A DNA stretch of 23,415 nucleotides from a virus. Lineage: Duplodnaviria > Heunggongvirae > Uroviricota > Caudoviricetes. The translations under genes were made by a program, and so were the position numbers. Below, piece after piece: positions 1,066 through 17,727 of the stretch. The notes below the pieces were generated by a model, which saw only the letters and a list, made by a program, of their open reading frames with translations, was not told where the DNA came from and made no database searches. Numbering within the stretch: the first letter of the stretch is position 1; each line of letters opens with the position of its first letter. Location of the stretch: IMG/VR virus record IMGVR_UViG_2690316068_000003. The stretch is one strand, 5' to 3'.

Positions 1066-2837
1066 CAGTAAAACTCCAGAATGGTGGATGTCAGCGGGGT
1101 GCTGATACCGGCGGTGAGTGGCTCATTTAACAGGGCGTGCATGGTCGCCCAGGCGAGGTCGGCGTGGCTGGCTTCCTCGCTGCGGCTGGCCTCATAGGTG
1201 GCGCTGCGTCCGCTGCTGGTCATGGTCTTGCGGATAGCCATAAACGAGCTGGTGATGTCGGTGGCGCTGACGTCATATTCCAGACAGCCACGGCGGATAA
1301 CGTCTTTTGCCTTGAGCACCATTGCGGTTTTCATTTCCGGCGTGTAGCGGATATCGCGCGCGGCGGGATAGAACGAGCGCACGAGCTGGAACACGCCGAC
1401 ACCGAGGCCGGTGGCATCAATACCGATGTATTCGACGTTGTATTTTTCGGTGAGTTTGCGGATGGATTCAGCCTGAGTGGCAAAGTCCATGCCTTTCCAC
1501 TGGTGACGCTCAAGTATTCTGAATTTGCCACCGGCCACCACCGGCGGTGCCAGTACCACGCATCCGGCGCTGTCGCCACGGTGTGACGGGTCGTAACCAA
1601 TCCATACCGGGCGGGAGCCGAACGGATTGGCGGCAAACGGTGCATAGTCTTCCCATTCTTCCAGCGTGTCGACCATGCAGCGTTGCAGCTCCTCGAACGG
1701 GAACACCGATGCCTTGTCGTCAACAAATTCACACATGAACAGGTTTTTAAAATCGTCGGCGCTGTTTTCGCGTTTGAGCTGCTCAATGTCGAACAACGTG
1801 CAGCCACCTTTCAGGGCGTCCTCAATGGTGACAATCTGCCGCCACTGGCCGTCCGCACAGAGAAGCCCACCGGCAAGGGCGTTATGACTGACGTCGATTT
1901 CCACGCGTTCGGCGGCGCTGGCGCGTCCCCGGTTAAACAGTTCACCCGACCAGAACGGGTAGGCGTCGTGCGCCAGCGTGGACGGGGTGGAGAAATAGGT
2001 CGAGCGCAGGTGGCTCTGTGAGGCCATACCGGATGCCACCTTACGCAGTACCTGAAAATTCGGGATCCAGAAAATCTCATCGACGTACAGGTCGCCGTTA
2101 TGGCTCTGTGCGGTGTTGGAGTTGGTGCCGAGAAAAATCAGTTTTGCGCCGTTATTACCCAGGACAATCGGGTCACCGGTCAGGTCAACGTCAACCAGCC
2201 GGGCAAAGGCGATGATGTATTCGCGGAACACATACGCCTGCGTTTTACTGGCCGACAGAAAAATCTGGTTATGACCGGTTTTCAGGGCGCGCAGCAGCGC
2301 CTCGCGGGAAAAATAAAACGTCGCGCCAATCTGGCGGGATTTCAGAATATCGCGGATGCGGTGCTCAAGCCCGGCGCGATACCAGTGCAACTGATATTCA
2401 AAAGACTGCTCAAAGAAAATCTGCTCCAGCTTTTCGATGGCCTCGTCACTGAAAAAATTCTTTTTCGGTTTGCGGCGCCCGCCTTTGTTGCGGTTAGCGA
2501 CGTTCGGATTAAGGTCTGCCTCGTTGCCGGTCTGACTGTAACGGTTTACCCGTGCCAGTCGTTCAATCTGGCGTCCCAGCAGGTCAATTTCCTTGAAGTC
2601 ACCGCCGGTTTTCTGCGGTTTGATGATGAGCTGGGTCAGCCGCGCTTCCAGACTCATTTCGACACGGCTGATGGGGGCAACGCTGTCCCAGCCGTCGCGC
2701 TGTTTCCAGCTCTGCACCGTCGGGCGTTTCATCTGCAACATGGCGGCAATCTGCGGCACGGAAAACCCCTGCCAGTACAGCAGCGCCGCCTGACGACGCG
2801 GGTCGTGTAAAAGAGTGGTGTCTGTGGTGATGGTCAT
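1065..2837 (-). CDS. P: Terminase large (ATPase) subunit, P2 gpP-like, 590 aa
   Basis: The track ORF begins at a TTG (2867). I place the start at ATG 2837-2835 (MTITTD...), which has GAGGT four nt upstream on the minus strand and gives the P2 length. Stop TGA at 1067-1065. Confidence 0.92.
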   Translation of the reverse strand: MTITTDTTLLHDPRRQAALLYWQGFSVPQIAAMLQMKRPTVQSWKQRDGWDSVAPISRVEMSLEARLTQLIIKPQKTGGDFKEIDLLGRQIERLARVNRYSQTGNEADLNPNVANRNKGGRRKPKKNFFSDEAIEKLEQIFFEQSFEYQLHWYRAGLEHRIRDILKSRQIGATFYFSREALLRALKTGHNQIFLSASKTQAYVFREYIIAFARLVDVDLTGDPIVLGNNGAKLIFLGTNSNTAQSHNGDLYVDEIFWIPNFQVLRKVASGMASQSHLRSTYFSTPSTLAHDAYPFWSGELFNRGRASAAERVEIDVSHNALAGGLLCADGQWRQIVTIEDALKGGCTLFDIEQLKRENSADDFKNLFMCEFVDDKASVFPFEELQRCMVDTLEEWEDYAPFAANPFGSRPVWIGYDPSHRGDSAGCVVLAPPVVAGGKFRILERHQWKGMDFATQAESIRKLTEKYNVEYIGIDATGLGVGVFQLVRSFYPAARDIRYTPEMKTAMVLKAKDVIRRGCLEYDVSATDITSSFMAIRKTMTSSGRSATYEASRSEEASHADLAWATMHALLNEPLTAGISTPLTSTILEFY

Positions 2838-3010
2838 GAATACCTCGCCGTGATGAATACACGGCAAGGCTACTGAGTCGCGTCCCGCGATTCGCTAAGG
2901 TGCTGTTGTGTCAGTGATAAGCCATCCGGGACTGATGGCGGAGGATGCGCATCGTCGGGAAACTGATGCCGACATGTGACTCCTCTAATCACTATTCAGG
3001 ACTCCTGACA
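2838..3010. promoter_or_regulatory. Divergent late-promoter region between P and O (P2 P_P/P_O equivalent)
   Basis: 173-bp intergenic gap between divergently oriented P and O, as in P2. I found no perfect TGT-N12-ACA Ogr box by eye; the closest is TGT at 2975 with CAC 12 nt downstream. Contains a 5-bp inverted repeat CCGTG-N7-CACGG at 2848-2864. Confidence 0.4.
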
Positions 3011-3865
3011 ATGGCAAAAAAAGTTTCAAAATTCTTTCGTATCGGCGTTGAGGGTGACACCTGTGACGGGCGTGTCATCAGTGCGCAGGATATTCAGGAA
3101 ATGGCCGAAACCTTTGACCCGCGCGTCTATGGTTGCCGCATTAACCTGGAACATCTGCGCGGCATCCTGCCTGACGGTATTTTTAAACGTTATGGCGATG
3201 TGGTCGAACTGAAGGCCGAAAAGATTGACGATGATTCGGCGCTGAAAGGCAAATGGGCGCTGTTTGCGAAAATCACCCCGACCGATGACCTTATCGCGAT
3301 GAACAAGGCCGCGCAGAAGGTCTATACCTCAATGGAAATTCAGCCGAACTTTGCCAACACCGGCAAATGTTATCTGGTGGGGCTGGCCGTCACCGATGAC
3401 CCGGCAAGCCTCGGCACGGAATACCTGGAATTCTGCCGCACGGCAAAACACAACCCCCTGAATCGCTTCAAATTAAGCCCTGAAAACCTGATTTCAGTGG
3501 CAACGCCTGTTGAGCTGGAATTTGAAGACCTGCCTGAAACCGTGTTCACCGCCCTGACCGAAAAGGTGAAGTCCATTTTTGGCCGCAAACAGGCCAGCGA
3601 TGATGCCCGTCTGAATGACGTGCATGAAGCGGTGACCGCTGTTGCTGAACATGTGCAGGAAAAACTGAGCGCCACTGAGCAGCGCCTCGCTGAGATGGAA
3701 ACCGCCTTTTCTGCACTTAAGCAGGAGGTGACTGACAGGGCGGATGAAACCAGCCAGGCATTCACCCGCCTGAAAAACAGTCTCGACCACACCGAAAGTC
3801 TGACCCAGCAGCGCCGCAGCAAGGCCACCGGTGGTGGCGGTGACGCCCTGATGACGAACTGCTGA
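3011..3865 (+). CDS. O: Capsid scaffolding protein, P2 gpO-like, 284 aa
   Basis: Start set at ATG 3011 (MAKKVSKFF...) rather than the track ATG at 2945, which has GGAGG directly abutting it. AGGA lies 11 nt upstream of 3011. The length matches P2 O as recalled. Confidence 0.9.
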   Translation: MAKKVSKFFRIGVEGDTCDGRVISAQDIQEMAETFDPRVYGCRINLEHLRGILPDGIFKRYGDVVELKAEKIDDDSALKGKWALFAKITPTDDLIAMNKAAQKVYTSMEIQPNFANTGKCYLVGLAVTDDPASLGTEYLEFCRTAKHNPLNRFKLSPENLISVATPVELEFEDLPETVFTALTEKVKSIFGRKQASDDARLNDVHEAVTAVAEHVQEKLSATEQRLAEMETAFSALKQEVTDRADETSQAFTRLKNSLDHTESLTQQRRSKATGGGGDALMTNC

Positions 3866-3923: not shown

Positions 3924-4997
3924 ATGCGCCAGGAAACCCGCTTTAAATTTAATGCCTACCTGTCCCGTGTTGCCGAACTGAACGGCATCGACGCCGGTGA
4001 TGTGTCGAAAAAATTCACCGTTGAACCGTCGGTCACCCAGACCCTGATGAACACCATGCAGGAGTCCTCTGACTTTCTGACCCGCATCAACATTGTGCCG
4101 GTCAGCGAAATGAAAGGGGAAAAAATTGGCATCGGTGTCACCGGCTCCATCGCCAGCACCACCGACACCGCCGGTGGCACCGAGCGTCAGCCGAAGGACT
4201 TCTCGAAGCTGGCGTCAAACAAGTACGAATGCGACCAGATTAACTTCGATTTTTATATCCGCTACAAAACGCTTGACCTGTGGGCGCGTTATCAGGATTT
4301 CCAGCTCCGTATCCGTAACGCCATTATCAAACGCCAGTCCCTTGATTTCATCATGGCCGGTTTTAACGGCGTGAAGCGTGCCGAAACCTCTGACCGCAGC
4401 AGCAATCCGATGCTGCAGGATGTGGCGGTCGGCTGGCTGCAGAAATACCGCAATGAAGCCCCGGCGCGCGTGATGAGCAAGGTTACTGACGAGGAAGGTC
4501 ACACCACCTCTGAGGTCATCCGCGTGGGTAAGGGTGGTGATTATGCCAGCCTCGATGCACTGGTGATGGATGCGACCAACAACCTGATTGAGCCGTGGTA
4601 TCAGGAAGACCCTGACCTTGTGGTGATTGTGGGGCGTCAGCTACTGGCGGACAAGTATTTCCCCATCGTCAACAAGGAGCAGGACAACAGCGAAATGCTG
4701 GCCGCTGACGTCATCATCAGCCAGAAACGCATCGGTAACCTGCCGGCGGTACGTGTCCCGTACTTCCCGGCGGATGCGATGCTCATCACGAAGCTGGAAA
4801 ACCTGTCCATCTACTACATGGATGACAGCCATCGCCGCGTTATTGTGGAAAACCCGAAACTCGACCGCGTGGAGAACTACGAGTCAATGAACATTGATTA
4901 CGTGGTGGAAGACTACGCCGCCGGTTGTCTGGTGGAAAAAATTAAGGTCGGTGATTTCTCCACACCGGCTAAAGCGACCGCAGAGCCGGGAGCGTAA
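3924..4997 (+). CDS. N: Major capsid protein, P2 gpN-like, 357 aa
   Basis: ATG 3924 preceded by AGGA. Position between scaffold and small terminase. Sequence matches P2 N as recalled. Confidence 0.94.
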   Translation: MRQETRFKFNAYLSRVAELNGIDAGDVSKKFTVEPSVTQTLMNTMQESSDFLTRINIVPVSEMKGEKIGIGVTGSIASTTDTAGGTERQPKDFSKLASNKYECDQINFDFYIRYKTLDLWARYQDFQLRIRNAIIKRQSLDFIMAGFNGVKRAETSDRSSNPMLQDVAVGWLQKYRNEAPARVMSKVTDEEGHTTSEVIRVGKGGDYASLDALVMDATNNLIEPWYQEDPDLVVIVGRQLLADKYFPIVNKEQDNSEMLAADVIISQKRIGNLPAVRVPYFPADAMLITKLENLSIYYMDDSHRRVIVENPKLDRVENYESMNIDYVVEDYAAGCLVEKIKVGDFSTPAKATAEPGA

Positions 4998-11703: not shown

Positions 11704-13998
11704 ATGAGCACAAAATTCAAAACCGTTATCACCACTGCCGGTGCAGCAAAGCTGGCAGCGGCAACCGCACCGGGAGGGCGGAAGGTCAACATTACCACGA
11801 TGGCCGTCGGGGATGGCGGTGGTAAATTGCCTGTCCCGGATGCCGGACAGACCGGGCTTATCCACGAAGTCTGGCGACATACGCTGAACAAAATCAGCCA
11901 GGACAAACGAAACAGTAATTATATTATCGCAGAGCTGGTTATTCCGCCGGAGGTGGGCGGTTTCTGGATGCGTGAGCTTGGCCTGTACGATGATGCGGGA
12001 ACGTTAATTGCCGTGGCGAACATGGCCGAAAGTTATAAGCCAGCTCTTGCCGAAGGCTCAGGGCGTTCGCAGACCTGTCGCATGGTCATCATCGTCAGCA
12101 GTGTGGCCTCGGTGGAGCTGACCATTGACACCACAACGGTGATGGCGACACAGGATTACGTTGATGACAAAATTGCAGAGCACGAACAGTCACGACGTCA
12201 CCCGGACGCCTCGCTGACCGCCAAAGGTTTTACTCAGTTAAGCAGTGCGACCAACAGCACGTCTGAAACACTGGCCGCAACGCCGAAAGCGGTAAAGGCC
12301 GCGTATGACCTTGCTAACGGGAAATATACTGCGCAGGATGCCACCACAGCGCGAAAAGGTCTTGTCCAGCTCAGTAGTGCCACCAACAGCACGTCTGAAA
12401 CGCTCGCCGCAACACCAAAAGCGGTAAAGGCCGCGTATGACCTTGCTAACGGGAAATACACTGCACAGGACGCCACCACAGCGCGAAAAGGTCTTGTCCA
12501 GCTCAGTAGCGTCACCAACAGCGATTCTGAAACGCTTGCGGCAACACCAAAGGCGGTTAAGACAGCGTATGACCTTGCTAACGGGAAATACACTGCACAG
12601 GATGCCACCACGGCGCGAAAAGGTCTTGTCCAGCTCAGTAGCGCCACCAACAGTGATTCTGAAACCCTCGCGGCAACGCCAAAAGCAGTGAAGTCTGCCT
12701 ATGACAATGCTGAAAAACGTCTTCAGAAAGATCAGAACGGTGCGGATATTCCGGGAAAGGATACCTTCACGAAAAATATCGGTGCCTGTCGTGCTTATAG
12801 CGGCGCTTTGAGCACTGAAGCCGGAAACTGGACAACCGCTCAGTTTATTGAATGGCTGGATTCCCGTGGTGCATTTAATCATCCGTACTGGATGTGCAAA
12901 GGCTCCTGGTCATATGCAAATAACAAAATCATTACGGATACCGGATGTGGTGATATCCACCTGGCTGGTTGTGTCGTCGAGGTCATGGGAACTAAATCTG
13001 CAATCACTATCCGAGTGACCACGCCGACAACATCAAGTGGTGGCGGTACAACCAGCGCGCAATTCACTTACATTAATCATGGGGACGGCTACTCCCCCGG
13101 CTGGCGTCGTGACTGGAATCGTCAGGGCGACTCAATGACCGGAACGATTAATCAGGATGGCGGAAGCCAGAATGCCTATATGTCTACGGCCTTATGTTCA
13201 GGCACCAGAGGCGGCAAAAAATATCTCAGAAAGTTTCGTGGTGGAGAAGGAGACACTATCTGGCATGAAACAGTACAGGGCGGGGTAGTTCGCTGGGCGA
13301 CTGGTAATACTGATGCTCAGGAAGAATTATCACTCAGCTCCGCTTATGGTCTCCGTTCAAGAGGTGAGATTACATCACTCAGTGCTAATGGTCTGCGCAT
13401 TGCTTATGGCAATTATGGATTCTTTATCAGGAATGATGGCAGCAGCACTTATTTTATGTTGACTAAATCAGGTGACAGATTAGGTACTTATAATAATTTA
13501 AGACCACTGATTATAAATGATGCCACGGGTGCTGTATCAATGGGGCATGGCCTGAGTGTTACTGGTGATATTGTCTCAAGTACCAAAGTACGTGCCGGTA
13601 GCGGGAAAAAATTCACGGTCAGCAGCAGTAATACATCCACGAAGGAAGCCGCATTCAATTTGTGGGGAAACTCAAGTCGTCCGGTGGTGGCTGAATTAGG
13701 TGATGATGCAGGCTGGCATTTTTACAGTCAGAGAAATACAGATAACAGCATCACTTTTGCTGTTAACGGTCAGGTATCACCATCTAACTATAGTAATTTT
13801 GATTCCCGTTATGTACGCGATATCCGGCTTGGGACTCGAGTTGTCCAGACCATGCAGAAAGGGGTGATGTATGAGAAAGCAGGGCACGTAATTACCGGGC
13901 TTGGTATTGTCGGTGAAGTCGATGGTGATGACCCCGCAGTATTCAGACCAATACAAAAATACATCAATGGCACATGGTATAACGTCGCACAGGTGTAA
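11704..13998 (+). CDS. H: Tail fibre protein, P2 gpH-like but longer (764 aa), with a mosaic low-GC distal domain
   Basis: The GC-rich N-terminal part is P2 H-like. Contains four in-frame 44-aa repeats carrying the phage tail-fibre repeat motif (SETLAATPKAVK). The distal half is AT-rich (about 30% GC on a sampled line) and is presumably the receptor-binding domain. Confidence 0.9.
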   Translation: MSTKFKTVITTAGAAKLAAATAPGGRKVNITTMAVGDGGGKLPVPDAGQTGLIHEVWRHTLNKISQDKRNSNYIIAELVIPPEVGGFWMRELGLYDDAGTLIAVANMAESYKPALAEGSGRSQTCRMVIIVSSVASVELTIDTTTVMATQDYVDDKIAEHEQSRRHPDASLTAKGFTQLSSATNSTSETLAATPKAVKAAYDLANGKYTAQDATTARKGLVQLSSATNSTSETLAATPKAVKAAYDLANGKYTAQDATTARKGLVQLSSVTNSDSETLAATPKAVKTAYDLANGKYTAQDATTARKGLVQLSSATNSDSETLAATPKAVKSAYDNAEKRLQKDQNGADIPGKDTFTKNIGACRAYSGALSTEAGNWTTAQFIEWLDSRGAFNHPYWMCKGSWSYANNKIITDTGCGDIHLAGCVVEVMGTKSAITIRVTTPTTSSGGGTTSAQFTYINHGDGYSPGWRRDWNRQGDSMTGTINQDGGSQNAYMSTALCSGTRGGKKYLRKFRGGEGDTIWHETVQGGVVRWATGNTDAQEELSLSSAYGLRSRGEITSLSANGLRIAYGNYGFFIRNDGSSTYFMLTKSGDRLGTYNNLRPLIINDATGAVSMGHGLSVTGDIVSSTKVRAGSGKKFTVSSSNTSTKEAAFNLWGNSSRPVVAELGDDAGWHFYSQRNTDNSITFAVNGQVSPSNYSNFDSRYVRDIRLGTRVVQTMQKGVMYEKAGHVITGLGIVGEVDGDDPAVFRPIQKYINGTWYNVAQV
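12226..12704 (+). repeat. Tandem in-frame 132-bp repeats, about 3.6 copies, inside H
   Basis: Unit starts at 12226, 12358, 12490 and 12622, each beginning GGT (Gly). Encoded units are near-identical (GLVQLSSATNSTSETLAATPKAVKAAYDLANGKYTAQDATTARK). The minus-strand track ORFs 12234-12650 and 12238-12882 are mirror artefacts of this array. Confidence 0.9.
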
Positions 13999-14001
13999 TT
14001 T

Positions 14002-14529
14002 ATGCAACATTTAAAAAATATTACTGCGGGTAATCCAAAAACTGTTGCCCAATATCAACTGACAAAAAATTTTGATGTTATCTGGTTATGGTCCGAAGAG
14101 GGAAAAAACTGGTATGAGGAAGTAAGTAATTTTCAGGAGGACACGATAAAGATTGTTTACGACGAGAATAATATAATTGTCGGCATCACCAGAGATGCTT
14201 CAACGCTTAACCCTGAAGGTTTTAGCGTTGTCGAGGTTCCTGATATTACCGCCAACCGACGTGCTGATGACTCAGGTAAATGGATGTTTAAGGATGGTGC
14301 CGTGATTAAGCGGATTTATACGGCAGACGAACAGCAGCAACTGGCAGAATCACAAAAGGCAACTTTGCTTTCCGAAGCCGAATCCGTGATTTTGCCGCTG
14401 GAGCGCGCTGTCAGGCTGAATATGGCAACAGATGAGGAACGCAGCCGACTGGAAGCATGGGAACGCTACAGCGTTCTGGTCAGCCGTGTGGATCCTGCAA
14501 ATCCTGAATGGCCGGAAATGCCGCAATAA
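14002..14529 (+). CDS. G: Tail fibre assembly chaperone, P2 gpG-like (Tfa family), 175 aa
   Basis: Immediately after H. The C-terminal ...[25 protein letters not shown] is Tfa-like. The 5' two-thirds is AT-rich and the 3' third is GC-rich. Confidence 0.85.
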
Positions 14530-14564
14530 GTTGTATAAGCTCTGGTGTGAGATTACATATCTAT

Positions 14565-14604
14565 GGCACAGAGTAAAGCCTAATCTGATAGGCCGCTCTG
14601 TGTC
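14565..14604 (+). other. Stem-loop downstream of G (9-bp stem with one G-U pair, about 22-nt loop with an internal GCCT/AGGC mini-stem)
   Basis: GGCACAGAG at 14565-14573 pairs with CTCTGTGTC at 14596-14604. There is no clean U-tract, so it is not a canonical intrinsic terminator. Confidence 0.3.
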
Positions 14605-14644
14605 TGGAGTAGATTTTAGTAAAGCATTATTTTATTAGTGCAAA

Positions 14645-14673
14645 TTCTAAACAATACATTTTATGTATATGAT
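14645..14673 (+). promoter_or_regulatory. Putative sigma70-type promoter for the cargo ORF
   Basis: TTCTAA at 14645-14650, a 17-bp spacer, then TATGAT at 14668-14673, in an AT-rich context about 80 nt upstream of ATG 14751. The -35 is weak and the call is by eye only. Confidence 0.2.
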
Positions 14674-14750
14674 ATCCTGCGGACTTTAATGACTTGGTTT
14701 AGGCTAACCAGATAACACTGAAGGAATATTTTTGATAATTAAGGTGCGGT

Positions 14751-15344
14751 ATGTTTACTAAGCGACGATTAAAAAATATTAATTGGGAGGCAAGTTCAGT
14801 GATTCTTGCTATGGTTCTCTTTGCTGGAAATATATTTTATACAAATCATCGTGATGATATAAGCATGGAGGCTGAGAGAGACAGTATCAGAACAATGTTT
14901 GCATATGAAATCGCTAATAACCATCGCGCTCTCACCTTTCTTGATAAAACGAGAAATATTGGCTTTGACGAAAATTCGGAGCATTTTGTTGGCGAGCCTT
15001 TTGCCATTAATGTCAAATCATTAGGAGGGCCTCGCTTACAGGTTGCATTAAACCAGACTGATAAAGTTTTTAAAGCCTACTTCAGTGAATTAAGTAAACT
15101 TGATAAAGAGGATGTTACTCTTCTTATGGACTATTACCATGAGCAAAGCATCCTGCTGGAGTGTGTAAAATCTACGTTACAGAAGATGAAAAGCAATAAT
15201 GATATTAAAGTTGATATTGATGGTTACTTATTAGAAGAACACTTCATGAATGAGTTTAATCTTTCTAATATTTTGCTTAAACGCTATAGCCATTTGTTGT
15301 CACAACACCTCAAAAAACCTGAAACAAAAGATTTACATAATTGA
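14751..15344 (+). CDS. Hypothetical membrane-anchored protein (197 aa), cargo gene in the G-FI accessory slot; candidate phage-exclusion/defence protein
   Basis: ATG 14751 with AAGGTG 4 nt upstream. Sampled 60-nt lines give 25-40% GC against about 60% in FI. Basic N-terminus (KRRLK) followed by one hydrophobic helix (SSVILAMVLFAGNIFY), then a charged, probably helical domain of about 165 aa with no motif I recognise. Confidence 0.7.
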   Translation: MFTKRRLKNINWEASSVILAMVLFAGNIFYTNHRDDISMEAERDSIRTMFAYEIANNHRALTFLDKTRNIGFDENSEHFVGEPFAINVKSLGGPRLQVALNQTDKVFKAYFSELSKLDKEDVTLLMDYYHEQSILLECVKSTLQKMKSNNDIKVDIDGYLLEEHFMNEFNLSNILLKRYSHLLSQHLKKPETKDLHN

Positions 15345-15550
15345 TGATCTGCTAATGGTTATTCATGGGATAACTATGTTTTATATGTAATCCAACTCAG
15401 ATGAATTATTGATTCTGGATAATAACCGCAGAGCGGCATATACCCTGACAGGCAAATGTCCGCTTCTTGCTCAAAGCAGACTGTCAGATTTGATAACTTT
15501 TGGGTTATGTAAATTGTCAGGCGGAAAATGAGTGAGTACAAATCAGGACA

Positions 15551-15577
15551 GGCGGGCGAATTGCCCGCCTTTTCTTT
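15551..15577 (+). terminator. Rho-independent terminator downstream of the cargo ORF
   Basis: GGCGGGC (15551-15557), loop GAATT, GCCCGCC (15563-15569), then TTTTCTTT. Confidence 0.6.
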
Positions 15578-15673
15578 ATCTGTTGTTTCATCCACTGACC
15601 AGCCAGGTCAAATAGCGTCTTATGCTCTGCACAACAGAAAATAGTTGCACCCATTAACCACGGAGTTAAACGG
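15578..15673 (+). promoter_or_regulatory. Region upstream of FI expected to carry the late promoter (P2 P_F equivalent)
   Basis: Positional inference from P2 operon structure. I could not identify a perfect TGT-N12-ACA box. GGAG at 15662-15665 serves as the FI RBS. Confidence 0.3.
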
Positions 15674-16864
15674 ATGAGTGACTATCATCATGGCGTGCAG
15701 GTGCTGGAGATTAACGACGGCACCCGCGTCATTTCCACCGTATCCACGGCCATTGTCGGCATGGTCTGCACGGCCAGCGATGCGGATGCGGAAACCTTCC
15801 CCCTCAATAAACCGGTGCTGATTACCAATGTGCAGAGCGCAATTGCAAAGGCCGGTAAAAAAGGCACGCTGGCGGCGTCGTTACAGGCCATCGCAGACCA
15901 GTCAAAACCGGTCACCGTTGTTGTGCGCGTGGAAGACGGCACCGGCGACGACGAAGAAACGAAACTCGCGCAGACCGTTTCCAATATCATCGGCACCACC
16001 GACGAAAACGGTCAGTACACCGGACTAAAAGCCCTGCTGGCGGCGGAGTCGGTAACCGGTGTTAAACCGCGTATTCTCGGTGTGCCGGGACTGGATACCA
16101 AAGAGGTGGCTGTTGCACTGGCATCCGTCTGTCAGAAGCTGCGCGCTTTCGGATATATCAGCGCATGGGGCTGTAAGACCATTTCCGAGGTGAAAGCCTA
16201 CCGCCAGAATTTCAGCCAGCGTGAGCTGATGGTCATCTGGCCGGATTTCCTCGCATGGGATACGGTCACCAGTACCACCGCCACCGCGTATGCCACCGCC
16301 CGTGCGCTGGGTCTGCGCGCTAAAATCGACCAGGAGCAGGGCTGGCATAAAACGCTGTCCAACGTCGGGGTAAACGGTGTTACCGGCATCAGCGCATCTG
16401 TATTCTGGGATTTGCAGGAGTCCGGCACCGATGCTGACCTGCTTAACGAGTCAGGCGTCACTACGCTGATTCGCCGCGACGGTTTCCGATTCTGGGGTAA
16501 CCGTACCTGCTCTGATGACCCGCTGTTCCTCTTTGAAAACTACACCCGCACCGCGCAGGTGATGGCCGACACGATGGCTGAGGCGCACATGTGGGCGGTG
16601 GACAAGCCCATCACCGCAACGCTGATTCGCGACATCGTTGACGGCATCAATGCCAAATTCCGTGAGCTGAAAACAAACGGCTATATCGTGGATGCGACCT
16701 GCTGGTTCAGCGAAGAATCCAACGATGCGGAAACCCTCAAGGCCGGAAAACTGTATATCGACTACGACTATACCCCGGTGCCTCCTCTTGAAAACCTGAC
16801 CCTGCGCCAGCGTATTACCGATAAATACCTGGCAAATCTGGTCACCTCGGTTAACAGCAATTAA
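15674..16864 (+). CDS. FI: Tail sheath protein, P2 gpFI-like, 396 aa
   Basis: ATG 15674. P2 order and length; sequence matches P2 FI as recalled. Confidence 0.95.
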   Translation: MSDYHHGVQVLEINDGTRVISTVSTAIVGMVCTASDADAETFPLNKPVLITNVQSAIAKAGKKGTLAASLQAIADQSKPVTVVVRVEDGTGDDEETKLAQTVSNIIGTTDENGQYTGLKALLAAESVTGVKPRILGVPGLDTKEVAVALASVCQKLRAFGYISAWGCKTISEVKAYRQNFSQRELMVIWPDFLAWDTVTSTTATAYATARALGLRAKIDQEQGWHKTLSNVGVNGVTGISASVFWDLQESGTDADLLNESGVTTLIRRDGFRFWGNRTCSDDPLFLFENYTRTAQVMADTMAEAHMWAVDKPITATLIRDIVDGINAKFRELKTNGYIVDATCWFSEESNDAETLKAGKLYIDYDYTPVPPLENLTLRQRITDKYLANLVTSVNSN

Positions 16865-17451: not shown

Positions 17452-17727
17452 ATGAACAAAGAAAATGTCATTACCCTGGAAAATCCGGTCAAGCGTGGTG
17501 AGCAGGTCATCGAACAGGTCACGCTGATGAAACCCAGTGCCGGGACGCTGCGCGGTGTCAGTCTGGCTGCGGTCGCGAACTCCGAAGTCGATGCACTGAT
17601 TAAGGTGCTGCCGCGCATGACGGCACCGATGCTGACCGAGCAGGAAGTCGCCGCGCTGGAACTGCCTGACCTTGTGGCGCTGGCCGGTAAGGTGGTCGGT
17701 TTTTTGTCGCCGAACTCGGTGCAGTGA
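17452..17727 (+). CDS. E: Tail assembly chaperone, P2 gpE-like, 91 aa
   Basis: ATG 17452, stop TGA at 17725-17727. P2 order and length. Confidence 0.9.
   Translation: MNKENVITLENPVKRGEQVIEQVTLMKPSAGTLRGVSLAAVANSEVDALIKVLPRMTAPMLTEQEVAALELPDLVALAGKVVGFLSPNSVQ

Follow-up and report, generated by a model that had tools for sequence, protein, structure and literature searches.

The window, by which we mean the whole stretch of 23,415 nucleotides that was analyzed, is a P2-like (Peduovirus) prophage of E. coli, and the gene of interest lies as cargo in the known Z/fun hotspot, the interval between gpG and FI. The open reading frames at 11704-13998, 14002-14529, and 15674-16864 are gpH, gpG, and FI, respectively. 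gpG, the tail fibre assembly gene, was assigned from the ORF list and from near-identical records in which it is annotated as gpG or tail fiber assembly protein; it is encoded on the plus strand and is the last gene of the late V-W-J-I-H-G operon. FI, also on the plus strand, is the tail sheath gene and opens the F operon. Z/fun of P2 is one of the classical variable loci of P2-like phages.

In alignments, the homology with P2-like phages of other cargo (P2-EC31, P2-EC58, and P2) stopped at about 14602-14605, where the "left inverted repeat" of the depositors ends, and resumed at about 15455 with their "right inverted repeat". The GenBank records of the P2 Z region in which these repeats are annotated are said to go back to Nilsson et al. 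in 2004. On the left, the conserved backbone spacer (14530-14605) corresponds to the left inverted repeat known from the P2 Z region; its identity in alignments to P2 and to the left repeats annotated for P2-EC31 and P2-EC58 was 87-94%. The conserved backbone on the right (15455-15544) is the right inverted repeat annotated in AJ512677 and AJ512683. The latter repeat contains an imperfect hairpin, GTCCGCTT-N8-AAGCAGAC (15458-15481), whose EC31 version was flagged as terminator-like. With its position between gpG and FI and with both conserved inverted repeats as bounds, the cargo is a Z/fun cassette in comparison with AJ512677, AJ512683, and NC_001895. As homology ends at both borders and the GC content drops in between, from 0.52-0.60 in gpH/gpG and FI to 0.29-0.38 over 14600-15400, we regard 14606-15454 (plus strand) as a foreign low-GC cargo cassette (moron). 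In other P2-like phages, the slot between gpG and FI is occupied by different cargo, and in PSP3 and FSL SP-004 the insert is absent; there, gpG is directly followed by the terminator, PF, and FI.

The whole 1144-nt spacer was found by megablast at 96-98% identity in 13 phage records, and about 50 further phage records matched from about 15445-15455 onward only. Among 5426 complete E. coli genomes, 1020 matched some part of the query, mostly the conserved right flank alone, and 201 contained the full-length spacer, which means that the cassette is present in roughly a fifth of the E. coli genomes that share at least the conserved flank. It was also detected in 28 IMG/VR contigs, always in the same orientation; the ribosome-binding-site block matched 40 viral contigs, and the 12 of them without a homologue were chance matches and were left out. 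The arrangement is ordinary for P2-like phages, and the cassette itself is uncharacterized but common. Z/fun has been described as a second defence-enriched hotspot (PMC9519451; bioRxiv 10.1101/2024.10.15.618418; PMC13586616), and the cassette is one of the commoner uncharacterized passengers of this defence-bearing locus, which makes it a reasonable candidate for phage challenge. Among phages with the same cassette, the cassette (14606-15454) differed by 2-8%, as compared to about 30% variable columns in the adjacent 3' region of gpH/gpG (13930-14529). This implies an independent reassortment of tail-fibre module and cargo, as has been reported for the Z/fun hotspot.

The cargo CDS (14751-15344, plus strand) encodes 197 aa and is preceded by the Shine-Dalgarno sequence AAGGTG (14741-14746, plus strand), 4 nt before the ATG. 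This site, the conserved homologues, and dN/dS values of 0.12-0.38 against six homologues show that the ORF is real. The shorter starts given in some phage records were rejected, as the N-terminal residues are conserved in all homologues. The TTTTGAT..TTAAGG block was invariant in six divergent cassettes, and the full TTTTGATAATTAAGG was present in five of these six. The CDS is followed by a cassette-specific 3' untranslated segment (15345-15454, plus strand), which was recognized by homology with the relatives L008, L019, L021, and L022 that continues past the stop codon to about 15487, and which moves with the gene in non-P2 contexts. The terminator scan called no plus-strand terminator within 15345-15454.

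The cargo protein is predicted to cross the membrane once, with an N-in anchor at residues ~12-31, and to continue as a four-helix bundle. On the basis of this model, it is probably a bitopic inner-membrane protein with the four-helix bundle in the periplasm. It belongs to phrog_3829, an unnamed PHROGs family that was the sole PHROGs result, and PGAP names it "lysogenic conversion protein". Pfam and NCBIfam hold no family for it, a sequence-profile search of the PDB gave no match, and 0 families of the PADLOC-DB v2 defence models matched at E <= 1. The fold matches were generic helical bundles, and four-helix-bundle periplasmic ligand-binding domains of the 4HB_MCP/TarH type are among the closest known systems. 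The family is tiny and confined to Enterobacterales. It comprises 38 clusters at 90% identity, and a set of 1.84 billion proteins contained 28 representatives; homologues with 58-71% identity come from Pantoea, Kosakonia, Pluralibacter, Salmonella, and other assemblies.

A further system for comparison is the HK97 gp15 moron (Juhala et al. 2000; Cumby et al. 2012). PMC3594210 describes it as a foreign gene of different GC content in the tail-gene region of a temperate phage, which encodes a small inner-membrane protein and has a promoter in front and a terminator behind. The cargo resembles gp15 in its foreign GC content, its site among tail genes, its small membrane protein, and a layout with a candidate promoter in front and a terminator behind, but the two share no sequence or demonstrated structural kinship, the terminator behind the cargo belongs to the phage operon, and the cargo promoter is putative. 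By analogy with gp15, one may speculate that the cargo functions in envelope-level superinfection exclusion or lysogenic conversion.

Downstream of the gene, the hairpin AGGCGGGC-GAATT-GCCCGCCT (15550-15570), with GAATT as its loop, is followed by the tail TTTTCTTTAT, whose T-tract reaches to 15579. With a GC-rich stem-loop and a U-rich tract directly behind it at 15550-15579, this has the build of a rho-independent terminator (feature at 15545-15579, plus strand). It folded with -20.1 kcal/mol as compared to -9.3 +/- 2.5 kcal/mol in shuffles (z -4.3; 0/200 shuffles as good), and it was the top terminator-like site in 10 kb in the terminator scan. The inner stem has 8 bp, seven of them G-C; the scan itself counts nine pairs and a 3-nt loop. 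Over six divergent phages, ranging from P2 to PSP3 and FSL SP-004, 95.7% of the stem cells were paired, versus 34-60% with slid partners, and one double change from C-G to U-A in the stem was compensatory. Among the 28 unique copies of the cassette type, the stem variants were mostly G-U wobbles. With a single covarying pair, these comparisons modestly suggest that the stem structure was maintained in evolution.

The Ogr/delta activator binding site of PF is predicted at 15581-15607 (plus strand), based on alignments and on homology to the P2 annotation at 17555-17583. Its TGT-N12-CCA motif starts at 15584 (plus strand) in the motif search, and the transcription start of PF is predicted at 15648-15650 (plus strand) by homology to P2 17626-17628. 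The terminator thus ends 1-4 nt ahead of the activator site, and the homologous hairpin and T-tract of PSP3-type phages have the same distance to the Ogr site and to FI. An earlier note on this DNA had placed an intrinsic terminator behind the ORF (15551-15577) and just ahead of the Ogr-dependent FI promoter, and both statements were confirmed.

What could not be upheld is the assignment of this terminator to the cargo. The hairpin is separated from the cassette border by about 95 nt and belongs to the right flank, which P2-like phages have in common irrespective of which cargo they carry and on which strand; the same flank terminator accompanies minus-strand cargo (P2 fun(Z), pro147) as well as different cargo on the plus strand (Wphi, EC31). 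In a more sensitive search, the homology of distant Peduoviridae (PSP3, FSL SP-004, SEN1, and others) to the window began exactly at 15545-15550, and in PSP3 and FSL SP-004 the hairpin is positioned 6 nt after the gpG stop codon and followed by PF and FI. Because the hairpin is found in the shared flank with any cargo and directly behind gpG in PSP3-type phages, we conclude that it is the ancestral terminator of the V-G operon, and because it directly follows gpG in PSP3 and FSL SP-004, that the Z-region cargo was inserted between gpG and this terminator. In the window, inverted repeats and cargo amounting to about 1 kb thus separate gpG from the homologous hairpin. A terminator behind Z/fun cargo therefore says nothing about the autonomy of the gene, as the slot lies upstream of the V-G terminator of the phage. 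The insulation of the tail operon, which had been seen as a feature of the cargo unit, fits with a strong terminator between cargo and PF, but such a shielding would be a property of the phage and not of the cargo.

Morons have been defined by a different GC content, an insertion between neighbors, an own promoter and terminator, and expression in the prophage (PMC3594210). For the cargo, the insertion between genes that are adjacent in relatives and the deviant GC content were found. A terminator of its own was not: there is none inside the cassette, and the one that is used belongs to the backbone and is missing from the non-P2 copies. It is very improbable that we are dealing with a fully autonomous moron that brought its own promoter and terminator and is insulated on both sides. 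Promoter-like hexamers and the hairpin do exist, and their layout matches the textbook moron (PMC3594210), but the terminator is located outside the border in sequence of phages with other cargo or none, the cassette copies outside P2 do without it, and there is no insulation on the 5' side.

With respect to this 5' side, the plus-strand terminator scan yielded no terminator-like site from the gpG stop codon (14529) to the cargo ATG (14751). A conserved hairpin at 14565-14604 in the left backbone spacer was identified by folding and received no terminator call; as it has no U-tract, it was rejected as a terminator of the V operon. The annotated V-operon terminator of P2 is a different hairpin, located inside the cargo region of P2 itself, and the P2 cassette thus has its own terminator just after the spacer of gpG, whereas the E. 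coli cargo cassette has none. Since no terminator separates gpG from the cargo, late read-through into the cargo is expected. Late transcription from PV should pass through the cargo and stop at 15550-15579, and rather than being an insulated unit that separates two operons, the cargo is better regarded as lying in a 3' extension of V-G. A late promoter in front of the cargo, which would require a TGT-N12-ACA dyad about 55 nt upstream of the start if it were Ogr/delta-dependent, was not found: no such dyad was present in 14530-14750, even with one mismatch, while the same search recovered the TGT-N12-CCA of PF. The earlier view of a moron-like autonomous unit between two late operons thus has to be corrected. 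The foreign low-GC nature of the insert, its position between the V-G and F operons, and the occurrence of the lone cargo elsewhere are in agreement with it, but the terminator is that of the V-G operon and the unit is open on the 5' side.

Outside P2, the cargo gene was found as a lone cargo in several settings. It follows the primase in P4-like satellites (L006, L011), lies in an AlpA-type island (L008), and has CbtA/CbeA, RadC, and DUF932 as neighbors in L020 and a transposase and ArdA in L021. It also occurs in a plasmid-like TraD/PilS-shufflon region (L022) and, in Salmonella, behind a tail-fibre-assembly-like gene with DUF4376 (L009); a scan of genome contigs returned only two loci. As judged by these neighborhoods, the gene is a self-sufficient accessory of mobile elements. 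As it stands alone outside P2, it must be expressible without the late control of P2. In Proteus mirabilis (L007), a 30%-identical homologue (3992-4591) adjoins a 471-aa putAbiC (PF16872) protein (2046-3461, minus strand) beside ahpCF, a weak case of guilt-by-association with phage defence.

The sigma-70-like promoter that had been proposed at 14645-14673 (plus strand) consists of TTCTAA (14645-14650), a 17-nt spacer, and TATGAT (14668-14673). Hexamers and spacing are indeed present in the sequence, with three of six and five of six consensus matches, and the site is below the threshold of the scan tool. In the PWM scan, it reached 9.4 bits and was the best site in the 221-nt spacer between gpG and the cargo, with rank 19 among 233,840 positions when both strands of the window are counted. 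A site that scores at least as high is, however, contained in 59% of the dinucleotide shuffles of the spacer, which is AT-rich, and on sequence alone TTCTAA-17-TATGAT is not above chance. The predicted start at about 14680 would result in a leader of about 70 nt and a transcript of about 0.9 kb. The promoter scan returned fewer promoter-like sites than obtained with shuffles (6 vs 8.6). Usable literature on transcriptomics of P2-type lysogens, on transcripts of this locus, or on accessions of the cargo protein was not found.

We also compared the promoter region with that of the relatives outside P2, to which it has about 72% DNA identity. The -10 block TATATGATAT is intact in L008, L019, and L021, but the -35 hexamer is not kept and reads CTCTAA, CTCTAG, or CCCTAG. 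The best promoter matches of these relatives are TTGACG-16-TAATAT with 11.6 bits (L021) and TTAACG-16-TACTAT (L008, L019). They are located in a segment of about 52 nt, 34 nt upstream of the start codon, which is missing in the E. coli P2 cassette. This segment corresponds to 2914-2970 in L008, with equivalents in L019 and L021, and would fall between positions 14719 and 14720 of the window; it is absent from all P2-borne copies of E. coli. The promoter match of the relatives overlaps a 7-bp palindrome, ATCGTTA...TAACGAT, which looks like an operator.

It is quite unlikely that the gene has its promoter at other hexamers of the spacer, either TTATTA-17-TACATT (14632-14660) or ATAACA-16-GATAAT (14712-14739, plus strand), with TTCTAA-17-TATGAT being a chance match. 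Several sites in the spacer are within 1-2 bits of each other, and ATAACA-16-GATAAT, which has 7.2 bits in the PWM scan, is the sole plus-strand match picked by the scan tool in the spacer. Its GATAAT is part of a block that is conserved in five of six divergent cassettes, with GATGCT in L020, but this conservation is explained by the ribosome-binding site. With a start within the Shine-Dalgarno sequence and a leader of only about 5 nt, transcription from this site is unlikely to be productive. TACATT, in turn, is not kept as a -10 hexamer and is replaced in relatives by TATATT with a different spacing to the -35 hexamer, and among all sites in the spacer TTCTAA-17-TATGAT scores highest.

No part of the locus varies less among the 28 unique P2-borne copies than the 145-nt leader (14606-14750). 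Only 5/145 of its columns varied, compared to 49/594 in the CDS, 24/198 at third codon positions (Fisher p = 0.005), and 12/110 in the 3' UTR (p = 0.02); these p-values are indicative only, as the sequences are related and the columns are not independent events. Neither of the two hexamers contained a variable column among these copies, where only 0.4 would be expected. The leader thus appears to be functionally constrained, although its low variability could also be due to a recent sweep or to a function at the RNA level instead of a promoter. Within this leader, TTCTAA-17-TATGAT is plausible as the best, albeit putative, promoter candidate, with a little indirect backing from the -10 block kept in the relatives and from the low variability of the leader.

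The cargo could alternatively be a mere passenger of the late operon, without a functional promoter, transcribed solely as the Ogr-dependent 3' extension of V-G and producing its protein late in the lytic cycle and not in the lysogen. We consider this to be unlikely but worth attention. The open connection to gpG, a candidate promoter that is no better than chance, the missing segment with the best promoter of the relatives, and a sole downstream terminator that is the operon's own are all in line with it, as is the orientation of the cargo, which is that of the late operon in all ~230 copies. This co-orientation may, however, reflect the common descent of near-identical copies. Moreover, the passenger explanation does not account for a leader that is the most conserved part of the locus, nor for a gene that is carried alone in non-phage contexts, and the characterized cargo of P2 hotspots acts from prophage or native promoters (PMC9519451; PMC9122126).

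We therefore return to the explanation that we regard as probable, namely a single-gene cargo in the Z/fun slot with a probable weak promoter of its own and additional late read-through, both of which are ended by the V-G terminator of the backbone. The low-GC single-gene cassette (14606-15454) sits between the gpG stop codon and the ancestral V-G terminator, which abuts the Ogr-binding site of the FI promoter. The cassette brings its conserved 145-nt leader with a good ribosome-binding site and probably a weak sigma-70 promoter. The putative promoter TTCTAA-17-TATGAT may result in a low constitutive expression in the lysogen, and once Ogr is present, the cargo would also be transcribed as a 3' extension of V-G, given that no terminator intervenes. 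Both kinds of transcripts would end at the backbone terminator, which would leave PF strictly activator-dependent.

The known P2 Z/fun cargo, i.e., fun(Z), the Z-region ORFs of P2-EC31, P2-EC58, and others, and the second defence locus of Vassallo et al. 2022, occupies the same slot between gpG and FI with the same inverted-repeat flanks and likewise consists of a single foreign gene of low GC content; for other alleles, the depositors annotated sigma-70 signals. The cargo protein has no relationship to Fun(Z) or the PD-T4/PD-lambda systems, and the cargo is co-oriented with the late genes, whereas P2 fun(Z) is antisense. For co-oriented Z/fun cargo, expression is probably to be expected in the lysogen, if there is a promoter, and late in infection.

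A module of about 0.95 kb, comprising the leader, the gene, and the 3' UTR, recurs outside P2 prophages with 72-97% DNA identity (L008 2781-3728, L019 2781-3783, L021 2793-3744, and L022 2965-3715). Its ends are short hairpin-forming inverted repeats, GAGCGGACATT ... AATGTCCGCTC in L019, which equal the inner ends of the "left/right inverted repeats" of the P2 Z region (window 14590-14615 and 15455-15490). The left hairpin of the module is degenerate in the window. A second copy of the left-end type, GTGCCAGGAGCGGACAT, is present in L019 about 50 nt past the right end, at the end of the contig, which hints at tandem cassettes. It is conceivable, though in our view doubtful, that the cargo as a whole is a hairpin-bounded module of about 0.95 kb that is shuttled among P2 prophages, P4-like satellites, plasmid-like regions, and genomic islands by a hairpin-recognizing recombination, and that its protein is a lysogen-expressed superinfection-exclusion factor acting at the level of the envelope.

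Some minor aspects concern the flanks. An Rfam scan of 14300-15800 gave two sub-threshold chance matches only, and thus no known RNA element in the flanks. A 38-aa ORF (15528-15644) and minus-strand flank ORFs of 45 aa and 73 aa, which are listed as hypothetical in some records, overlap the terminator and the PF promoter and were rejected as unsupported. Several phage records contain a 38-aa "hypothetical protein", FIG00643520, on the minus strand (15538-15654), which spans the terminator and the PF promoter; this annotation is almost certainly an artefact. The start of FI (ATGAGTGACTA, 15674-15684) is nearly duplicated in the right flank (ATGAGTGAGTA, 15528-15538, behind GGCGGAAA). The 38-aa ORF begins with this duplicate and reads across both the terminator and the PF promoter; it is more likely to be a scar of recombination than a gene.
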